Origin: Chloroflexota bacterium
Lineage (GTDB): Bacteria > Chloroflexota > Anaerolineae > Promineifilales > Promineifilaceae
Assembly: GCA_046484685.1 (NCBI GenBank)
Contig: JAWOIM010000197.1
Location: 1 to 34,789 of the forward strand
Reading direction: 5' to 3'
Length of the DNA stretch: 34,789 nt
Part shown: one piece after another, positions 33,943 to 34,426 of the stretch
How positions within the stretch are numbered: position 1 is the first letter of the stretch
How the letters are laid out: every line of letters begins with the position of its first letter
Translations under genes and position numbers: made by a program
The notes under the pieces: model-generated
Database searches by the model: none
Told to the model about the DNA's origin: nothing
What the model saw: the letters and a program-made list of their open reading frames with translations, nothing else

Positions 33943-34426
33943 ATGCAGAATGAAGATGTGGTAAAAATCATCTTAGCGGAGTTGGCGGAGTTGAAGGGAT
34001 TGTCGCAGGAGGTGGCCCGCGCCACCATGTTTCGCGGCCGACGACCAGGCCGCCTACGGGATTCGCCACCAGCGCATCGAGGAGAAATTCGAGGAATTCG
34101 ACATGCGCCTGTCGCTGGTCGAGCAGCAAATCGTTTACCTGCGGCAGCAGTTGACGCACGCTCCCCGAACACCCTTGCGCGATCCTATGGTGCCGATCAC
34201 CAAGCCGGCGCTGCGGCGACGGCTGCCGGAAGCCATCGCTCGGCACTTTGATCGGTCCGAGTTTGATAATCTGCTTTATCAACTCCATATCCAGGAAGTA
34301 GAAGGGGAGACCGTGGAAGAGCGGGCGCGGCAGTTGGTACTGCTGGTTGACCGCCACGGCCGTGGCTACGAGTTGATTGATGCGCTAAAATATTTGCGGC
34401 CAAACTTGGATTGGAGTGAATATTAG
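33943..34426 (+). pseudogene. Coiled-coil plus EAD-like protein whose frame appears interrupted by a +1 shift near 34030-34034 (alternatively two genes)
   Basis: Frame 1 gives a plausible MQNEDVVKIILAELAELKGLSQEVARATMF, then Arg/Ala/Pro-rich off-frame-like sequence. The +1 frame, open from 33995, continues as AADDQAAYGIRHQRIEEKFEEFDMRLSLVEQQIVYLRQQL... Confidence 0.4.
34103..34426 (+). CDS. Protein with a C-terminal effector-associated-domain (EAD/death-like adaptor)-type sequence
   Basis: GAGGAA lies 6 nt before ATG 34103. LPEAIARHFDRSEFDNLLYQLHIQEVEGETVEERARQLVLLVDRHGRGYELIDALKYLRPN fits the EAD1-like pattern F..sEl..L...L.i......G.t...ka..Lv....r.g....Li.al...rP. Confidence 0.6.
   Translation: MRLSLVEQQIVYLRQQLTHAPRTPLRDPMVPITKPALRRRLPEAIARHFDRSEFDNLLYQLHIQEVEGETVEERARQLVLLVDRHGRGYELIDALKYLRPNLDWSEY

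Follow-up and report, generated by a model that had tools for sequence, protein, structure and literature searches.

Effector-associated domains (EADs) were defined purely by comparative genomics as bacterial counterparts of the Death, CARD and Pyrin adaptors of animals, and the homotypic coupling proposed for them has hardly been tested. EADs, EAD7 included, are proposed to couple STAND NTPases and other sensors to effectors via homotypic contacts, with EAD7 classed among those that 'primarily recruit other effectors' (PMC7159879). On the viral side, a CARD-only protein (pCARD) of Acinetobacter phage 133 weakens CARD-dependent gasdermin defence (Wein et al. 2023, PMC10312443). Here, we describe an EAD7 protein encoded by a temperate phage of a Chloroflexota bacterium (Promineifilaceae). 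The window, i.e. the whole stretch analysed, is contig JAWOIM010000197.1 (34,789 nucleotides (nt); assembly GCA_046484685.1), one entire contig (C437) of an 800-contig metagenome-assembled genome (MAG). The gene starts directly after a holin gene and is interrupted by a +1 frame break. The reading we favour, held tentatively and with a little less than even confidence, is that of an adaptor-only late protein working by homotypic EAD7 binding, probably a decoy by analogy with pCARD.

In the literature searched, EAD7 is mentioned as a domain only in PMC7159879, PMC8195603 and one amyloid-signaling preprint, in which EADs are cellular and no viral copy is described; the top-ranked literature on phages, holins and death-like domains does not contain the term 'death-like domain'. 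Because EAD7 is mentioned only in cellular systems there, a phage-encoded EAD7 appears to be undescribed; the principle of viral adaptor-only proteins is already known. Searches of limited sensitivity gave no match among INPHARED phages (tblastn with the phage protein or with a solo EAD7 of the host) or in PHROG (with the phage EAD7 protein). The gene consists of the following elements, in window coordinates, where ORF stands for open reading frame and aa for amino acids:

33943-34251, forward strand: ORF-A (frame 1), 102 aa as written, residues 31-102 being an out-of-frame read-through over ORF-B
33943-34032, forward strand: frame-1 N-terminal segment of 30 codons, amphipathic, without a membrane helix, its start coupled to the holin stop (codon log-odds +21.6)
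34030-34033, forward strand: likeliest +1 break point, TTT-C (uncertainty about 34018-34040)
34034-34102, forward strand: helical coding segment in frame 2 that lacks a start codon and belongs to a putative coiled coil (codon log-odds +15.6)
34091-34105, forward strand: internal ribosome-binding site GAGGAA (34091-34096), 6-nt spacing and the ATG that starts ORF-B, as read in the sequence
34103-34426, forward strand: ORF-B, 107 aa, with a helix, a Pro-rich linker and the EAD7 domain
34229-34402, forward strand: EAD7 domain, a Death-fold-like helical adaptor (PF19960 over its cut-off)

The original prediction, made without database searches, held that the C-terminus of this protein is an EAD-type adaptor domain, and a profile search now specifies it as EAD7. 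The Pfam family EAD7 (PF19960) matches ORF-B residues 43-100 with 36.4 bits (cut-off 32; E 4.6e-9) over profile positions 3-62 of 62, and the Pfam scan of ORF-B found no domain other than EAD7. All positions of the family signature (F-x3-E-hydrophobic...G-x-T...R-A-R-x-L-V...R-H-G-R...E-L...L-R-P-x3-W) are present when it is aligned with EAD7s from the host and from metagenomes; the phage copy has a 2-residue deletion in the loop past helix 2 and Leu/Tyr in place of the common Cys/Phe. An exhaustive phmmer search returned 121 matches at E <=1e-3, and those scanned with Pfam are EAD7 proteins.

In an AlphaFold2 model of ORF-B (55 sequences; predicted local distance difference test score (pLDDT) 90.0), a Pro-rich linker of low confidence joins an N-terminal helix to a compact bundle; the helices span residues 2-19, 35-48, 51-60, 71-84 and 88-98. 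The EAD7 domain itself is modeled as all-alpha, with four helices and a short C-terminal turn. The coiled coil named in the original prediction appears as a long helix in the model and in the homologs, and is kept here as putative. Similarity to death-like folds, also anticipated, is borne out in part: in a VIA-align comparison with 48,161 PDB representatives, CARD, PYD, DED or DD structures occupy 46 of the 50 best rows at Z 6-7.1, values under the tool's caution level for helical bundles, and the model has five helices instead of the six of the Death topology. The best match is the NOD1 CARD (Z 7.1, root-mean-square deviation 2.7 A, 69 residues aligned); a bacterial death-like domain (8ss1) reaches Z 6.7 and the viral FLIP MC159 Z 6.2. 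Foldseek with the ORF-B model gave nothing significant (best E 1.4). The modeled fold may thus be called Death-like; since the Z values are modest for a helical bundle, we do not claim superfamily membership.

The gene closes a block of late genes:

32667-33551, forward strand: candidate endolysin, a TIM-barrel glycosidase with which the lysis block opens (Pfam Glyco_hydro_cc PF11790, E 4e-8, 33.6 bits)
33583-33939, forward strand: holin of the LL-H type (Pfam Phage_holin_6_1 PF09682, 30.4 bits, cut-off 24.9; phrog_6918 holin, E 5e-12)
34494-34540, forward strand: terminator-like hairpin of 18 bp with a U run, in which the AAACGGCCGTTT palindrome stands twice; the late transcript ends here

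The holin stop (33937-33939) lies 3 nt before the ATG at 33943. The hairpin (RNA fold -43.9 kcal/mol, z -3.4) is equalled by none of 200 shuffles, and the gene after it is on the opposite strand. A scan of the forward strand upstream of the EAD7 gene found no promoter-like site. The EAD7 gene is therefore, as first proposed, the last late gene, inside the late transcript and directly after the holin. Immediately 3′ of the hairpin stands one of five occurrences of a 16-mer dyad, TGTTCGCGTGCGAACA (34533-34548, 12031, 21304, 31445 and, inverted, 8433). The candidate endolysin has no match in PHROG.

A search of the host MAG for EAD-bearing sensors and effectors, suggested along with the original prediction, found 14 further EAD7 matches besides the phage copy. 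The fusions among them are nSTAND2-EAD7, EAD7-nSTAND1 (found twice, once truncated at a contig end), EAD7-Pkinase, EAD7-FGE-sulfatase (FGS) and CHAT-EAD7; further forms are two adjacent genes on one contig, solo proteins of 83 and 123 aa, and several with unassigned partners. Kaur et al. (PMC7159879; PMC8195603) describe such architectures for EADs. The EAD principle, in which the same EAD sits on a core component and on effectors, is thus encountered in the host genome, not within the phage. The two adjacent genes (C329, locus L014, 8170-10311 and 10529-12652) both start with EAD7, are 45% identical and are each other's closest paralogs, one having a CBM27-like C-terminus; they conform to the pattern in which neighboring genes carry a common EAD. 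All 73 other genomes sampled from the host family (72 of 72 when the unpublished G852 is left out) contain EAD7, with 1-29 matches each, and none of seven from the sister family does. Between the phage domain and the host copies, identity is 23-41%, inside the range of the host paralogs among themselves (mean 32%, maximum 45%); between the phage domain and phage or metagenomic family members, it is 42-47%. Since the phage domain is nearer to the latter, it was not recently captured from this host.

These observations allow a mechanism to be proposed. The EAD7 protein would be made together with the late genes and would bring an adaptor without any sensor or effector part. Its EAD7 domain may bind those of the 14-protein host network, including the nSTAND-EAD7, CHAT-EAD7, EAD7-kinase and EAD7-FGS proteins; as a dominant-negative decoy, it would then uncouple host sensors from death effectors during virion assembly, a mode that would be shared with the phage CARD-only protein, viral FLIPs and pyrin-only proteins. 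We infer both the binding to host EAD7 and the inhibition; the identity of the domain, the Death-like class of its modeled fold, the frame break, the synteny, the EAD7 repertoire of the host and the phage-host link are direct results. The earlier suggestion that a solo EAD acts as a decoy gains a tested phage precedent in pCARD (PMC10312443). What does not stand is the picture of an isolated solo EAD: the protein belongs to a holin-coupled family, as set out below, and the decoy role is a probable one.

The frame structure bears on which product carries the domain. Codon-usage log-odds, trained on 16 trusted genes of the contig, are positive for the first 30 codons of frame 1 (protein-like) and turn negative in the Arg/Ala/Pro-rich remainder, with -14.7 over 34033-34101 and -19.5 over 34102-34251; ORF-A was accordingly rejected as a genuine 102-aa protein, and it has no Pfam match. 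Among the trusted genes, windows of the same lengths read off-frame all score below the two coding segments (+21.6 and +15.6). The open stretch of frame 2 begins at 33995. The best-scoring frame changes at about 34018-34040, in agreement with TTT-C; the family hidden Markov model (HMM) match in frame 2 begins at 34037, and phmmer alignments begin at the first residue past the break. Both the +1 break at TTT-C and the out-of-frame character of the frame-1 continuation were thus called correctly from the letters alone. Family homology extends 66 nt 5′ of ATG 34103, the segment upstream of this ATG raises the family HMM score by about 5 bits (78.1 instead of 73.3), and Met 34103 aligns with internal positions of homologs. 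An alternative frame-2 start 5′ of 34103 was rejected, as no ATG, GTG, TTG or CTG was found there in that frame. The GAGGAA motif proposed for ATG 34103 is in place at a 6-nt spacing. Judging from the sequence, we infer that ribosomes starting at 33943 would make a 102-aa product with a nonsense tail, while ORF-B would be translatable from its own Shine-Dalgarno and ATG, retaining half of the putative coiled coil and the entire EAD7 domain.

Scanning the whole contig for coding signal 5′ of the first start codon in open frames turned up two sites only: the EAD7 gene and 26383-26569. The latter (coding signal +28) overlaps the end of the preceding 129-aa ORF (26036-26425), before the tape measure, where tail assembly chaperones classically have their programmed -1 frameshift. 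As only these two places show such breaks, random indels are rare in this assembly, and with no frame break elsewhere outside the chaperone site an assembly error is the less likely explanation; a recent, genuine 1-nt indel is the most likely one. Transcriptional slippage was rejected, the longest homopolymer being T3.

The same rarity of indels could be turned in favour of a programmed +1 ribosomal frameshift at AUG_UUU_CGC, in which tRNA-Phe slips from UUU to UUC and a 160-aa product arises beside the 102-aa product and the 107-aa ORF-B. The slip at 34030-34033 would retain perfect pairing, and UUU_CGN is the +1 motif of influenza PA-X. However, CGC ranks second in frequency among the Arg codons (90 of 403), and no hungry A-site is therefore expected; TTT_CGN occurs in frame five times in the trusted genes; the downstream RNA structure is unremarkable (z -0.31); and the Shine-Dalgarno-like AGGAGGTG at 34007-34014 sits 15 nt 5′ of the TTT codon, as against about 3 nt in prfB. 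Moreover, the frame-1 product continues for 72 codons, and the shift is not conserved, the six relatives found being single uninterrupted ORFs with no two-gene arrangement. For these reasons, we regard a programmed shift as very unlikely. Close relatives that could settle the frame break were absent from 5.8 billion clustered proteins, from 1.8 billion representatives (best non-self match 33-36% identical), from IMG/VR with the gene itself as query, and from 120 genomes of the host family, one of the same genus.

More distant relatives define a family. The best small homologs are metagenomic proteins of 110-210 aa, most of which have an N-terminal hydrophobic helix, a putative coiled coil, a Pro-rich linker and a C-terminal EAD7; a family profile was built from four of them. 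Full-length, single-ORF relatives stand on four IMG/VR viral contigs (L027-L030) and on two contigs, 38-46 kb long, from a 'Bauldia sp.' MAG (L045, L046), with Pfam EAD7 confirmed in those checked. In all six, the EAD7 gene overlaps or abuts the end of a small multi-transmembrane (multi-TM) ORF placed after the tail-fiber genes, and in most the next gene downstream encodes a protein that acts on the wall or binds carbohydrate (M23 peptidase, CBM_4_9 or beta-helix). With pairwise dN/dS values of 0.26 and 0.36, the family is under purifying selection. When the family HMM (A3) was run over 401 genomes of the host phylum, its best match was 34037-34414 of the window (model positions 52-177 of 178, 71.9 bits), and cellular EAD7 proteins match it in the domain part only; hence the gene belongs to the phage family. 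A local family HMM gives the window gene 78.1 bits over model positions 50-171. Within this phage family, which appears to be undescribed and whose members are translationally coupled to holin-like genes, the gene is a divergent member without the anchor. Its frame-1 N-terminus is amphipathic, with charged residues throughout and no transmembrane helix, and does not match the family HMM in its anchor portion.

A few side observations concern this family. A second small membrane protein with a conserved LEW(F/L)P motif is encoded a few genes downstream of several relatives (L045 7852-8118, L046 3772-4071, L027 7742-8089, L028 7749-8051), the one of L045 having a weak Phage_holin_9 match. Among the metagenomic proteins, P0003, P0004 and P0006 contain three or four tandem EAD7 domains (with an EAD1 match too in P0003 and P0006), and P0024 combines a borderline N-terminal EAD9 (24.2 bits, cut-off 25) with a C-terminal EAD7; these four are possibly multi-adaptor hubs. 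Pattern-limited IMG/VR scans found no relatives of the anchor-less subfamilies P0024/P0073 and P0021/P0079/P0025. A spanin (i-spanin, Rz-like), which would call for an N-in/C-out membrane anchor, a coiled coil in the periplasm and a lipoprotein as partner, was rejected as an identity for the gene product, which has no transmembrane domain (TMD); the relatives are predicted to be C-in, and no lipobox ORF lies in or after the gene.

Because the family is translationally coupled to holin-like genes, a lysis-linked role is a serious rival. According to this reading, the protein is a holin partner or lysis-timing factor that works with the adjacent holin, and EAD7 is a self-polymerizing module that sets an all-or-none threshold independently of any host EAD7. 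The gene begins inside or right beside a small multi-TM or holin gene in L027, L028, L029/L030, L045, L046 and the window, next to wall-degrading or carbohydrate-binding enzymes (M23 peptidase, CBM_4_9, beta-helix or Glyco_hydro_cc). By the positive-inside rule, the single N-terminal hydrophobic helix of the relatives, followed by basic residues, predicts a C-in orientation, and LysF1b provides an experimental analog of an N-out/C-in topology (PMC13056207). That relatives occur in a lineage without other EAD7 ('Bauldia') also favors independence from host EAD7. Yet the window copy lacks a membrane helix and so cannot sit in the membrane alone, the literature searched describes EAD7 only in conflict systems, EAD7 is common to the host family and the phage, and lysis cassettes often hold accessory genes unrelated to lysis. 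On balance, we consider a holin partner unlikely, though it is the main rival. A soluble decoy fits better than a membrane partner because the window copy has no anchor.

Decay of the gene fits the missing anchor as well. Here, the anchor and then the frame would have been lost along with the function, ORF-B being open only because the break is recent. The frame-2 segment upstream of ORF-B lacks a start codon, the anchor is missing compared with the family, the EAD7 score is the lowest in the genome, and the 1.8 billion representatives and 120 host-family genomes hold no close relative. Nevertheless, codon bias is fully kept in both segments, all conserved EAD7 positions are intact, the well-spaced GAGGAA-ATG permits an ORF-B with the whole domain, and anchor-less coiled-coil and EAD7 proteins of 107-120 aa exist elsewhere (P0021, P0025, P0079). 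A decaying remnant therefore seems quite unlikely to us.

Several observations weigh against the favored adaptor-only decoy. The EAD7 gene is the last late gene, and anti-defense genes are more often early; every relative found overlaps or abuts a holin-like gene, pointing to a lysis-linked role. Two of the relatives belong to the 'Bauldia sp.' MAG, which has no other EAD7, and none of 60 genomes of that family has EAD7; possibly, the two phage-sized contigs were binned wrongly. The phage EAD7 scores 37 bits in the genome-wide scan, compared with 48-86 bits for the other copies, and is not specially close to any single host copy. Lastly, the gene is frame-broken and has lost its anchor, so it may be decaying.

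The phage is of siphovirus type and integrates at the tRNA-Gly(CCC) of the MAG with which it was binned. Its further landmarks are:

781-835, reverse strand: attP core, a copy of the 3′ part of the host tRNA-Gly(CCC), beside the integrase (55 nt, sharing 96% identity with the beginning of host contig C77)
904-1923, reverse strand: integrase (phrog_1)
13741-15450: large terminase
18436-20547: portal
21311-22663: major head protein
26773-28554: tape measure

ARAGORN places the tRNA-Gly(CCC) at positions 1-73 of host contig C77, which begins exactly with this gene, as though the assembly broke at the integration site. Elsewhere in the host genome, the 10-mer palindrome AACGGCCGTT (core of rAAACGGCCGTTTy) has 2330 copies, with about 6 expected, and is the commonest 10-mer palindrome there, 14-fold over the next. 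The phage has 29 copies (e.g. at 201, 4096, 7941, 34457, 34497 and 34521), and the palindrome is absent from L027-L030, L045 and L046, the contigs of related phages. As the palindrome is shared and the attP core matches the host tRNA-Gly, the phage-host assignment is well supported. The contig ends 1-7 and 34783-34789 are identical (CTGGCGG, 7 nt), and given this overlap a minus-strand ORF (365..1 and 34782..34635) continues in frame across the junction, so that the contig probably represents an entire genome of 34,782 bp in circularly permuted form. The product of this ORF (phrog_37629/27141) has a soluble N-terminal part and a hydrophobic C-terminal tail, and an HTH_17 excisionase-like ORF lies at 488-688. 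No relatives of the phage were found in IMG/VR scans with its late proteins (endolysin candidate, 508-aa tail protein, holin), and the endolysin candidate had no match in 400 genomes of the class.

A further reading is that the gene serves the lysogen. In that case, the prophage would supply an EAD7-tagged component that is recruited by host STAND sensors and adds abortive infection against other phages, with a membrane-disrupting effector in the anchored relatives. A location at the prophage end beside the attachment site is typical of morons, EAD7 is among the EADs thought to recruit other effectors (PMC7159879), and small cellular coiled-coil and EAD7 proteins adjoin EAD7 partners in chromosomes. 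The case in point is locus L034 in another family of the phylum (G433), where genes at 708-1373 and 1495-1992 encode a 164-aa cellular protein with coiled coil and EAD7 next to a 220-aa protein that begins with an EAD7-like domain (30.8 bits, just below the cut-off); because of this pair, small anchor-less EAD7 proteins are also chromosomal components. The window gene, however, begins 3 nt past the holin stop within the late transcript, has no forward-strand promoter-like site upstream and lacks any effector part, which makes a lysogen-serving role very improbable. Rather improbable, too, is a scheme that joins both sides, with phage lysis wired into the Death-like adaptor network of the host: the holin-coupled EAD7 protein would go beyond blocking host death effectors (CHAT protease, kinase, STAND assemblies) and would recruit or nucleate them late, timing or executing cell death, and the two-frame organization would be an isoform switch regulated by frameshift or phase variation.

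The phage EAD7 copy is a natural probe of EAD function in a host lineage with EAD7 in every sampled genome, and the phage-host pair suits direct testing, since one assembly has yielded the cognate host proteins as well. If the protein binds and silences host EAD7 complexes, the 'EAD principle' would hold, and viruses of multicellular bacteria would have arrived at the adaptor-only counter-measure that poxviruses, herpesviruses and phage 133 also evolved. Should it be a holin partner instead, phage lysis timing would be linked to Death-fold polymerization.

Compared with known systems, the phage domain shares with the EAD7 of conflict systems (Kaur, Burroughs, Iyer & Aravind 2020, PMC7159879; 2021, PMC8195603) that it is small, all-helical, non-enzymatic, terminal and over the family cut-off, and that the host genome carries further copies fused to STAND NTPases, a CHAT/caspase-like protease, a kinase and FGS. 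It differs in being phage-encoded, in a late/lysis operon, and in being fused only to a putative coiled coil, with no core component or effector. The family of anchor, coiled coil and EAD7, which was not found in the literature searched, has a homologous coiled coil, linker and EAD7 and likewise provides a late gene directly after a holin or holin-like gene. In contrast to these relatives, the window copy has no membrane helix and is frame-broken, and its holin is a Holin_LLH, whereas their neighbor is a 3-TM ORF. Among mycobacteriophages, holin-like proteins of the LysF1b type (Pollenz et al. 2026, PMC13056207) resemble the anchored relatives only, in layout: a single N-terminal TMD, a predicted N-out/C-in topology and a position beside a multi-TMD holin-like gene in the lysis cassette. 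The LysF1b abstract names no EAD or other adaptor domain, and the window copy, for its part, has no TMD. The closest functional parallel is pCARD of phage 133 (PMC10312443) and, by extension, the pyrin-only proteins of poxviruses and viral FLIPs. The adaptor family is CARD there and EAD7 here; pCARD adjoins rIIAB, in contrast to a holin-coupled late gene; the phage EAD7 protein has an N-terminal putative coiled coil; and inhibition is known for pCARD, whereas here it would be expected by analogy. In both cases, a small viral homotypic adaptor of Death-fold type comes without a sensor or effector domain, and the host deploys the cognate adaptor in immune or suicide complexes.

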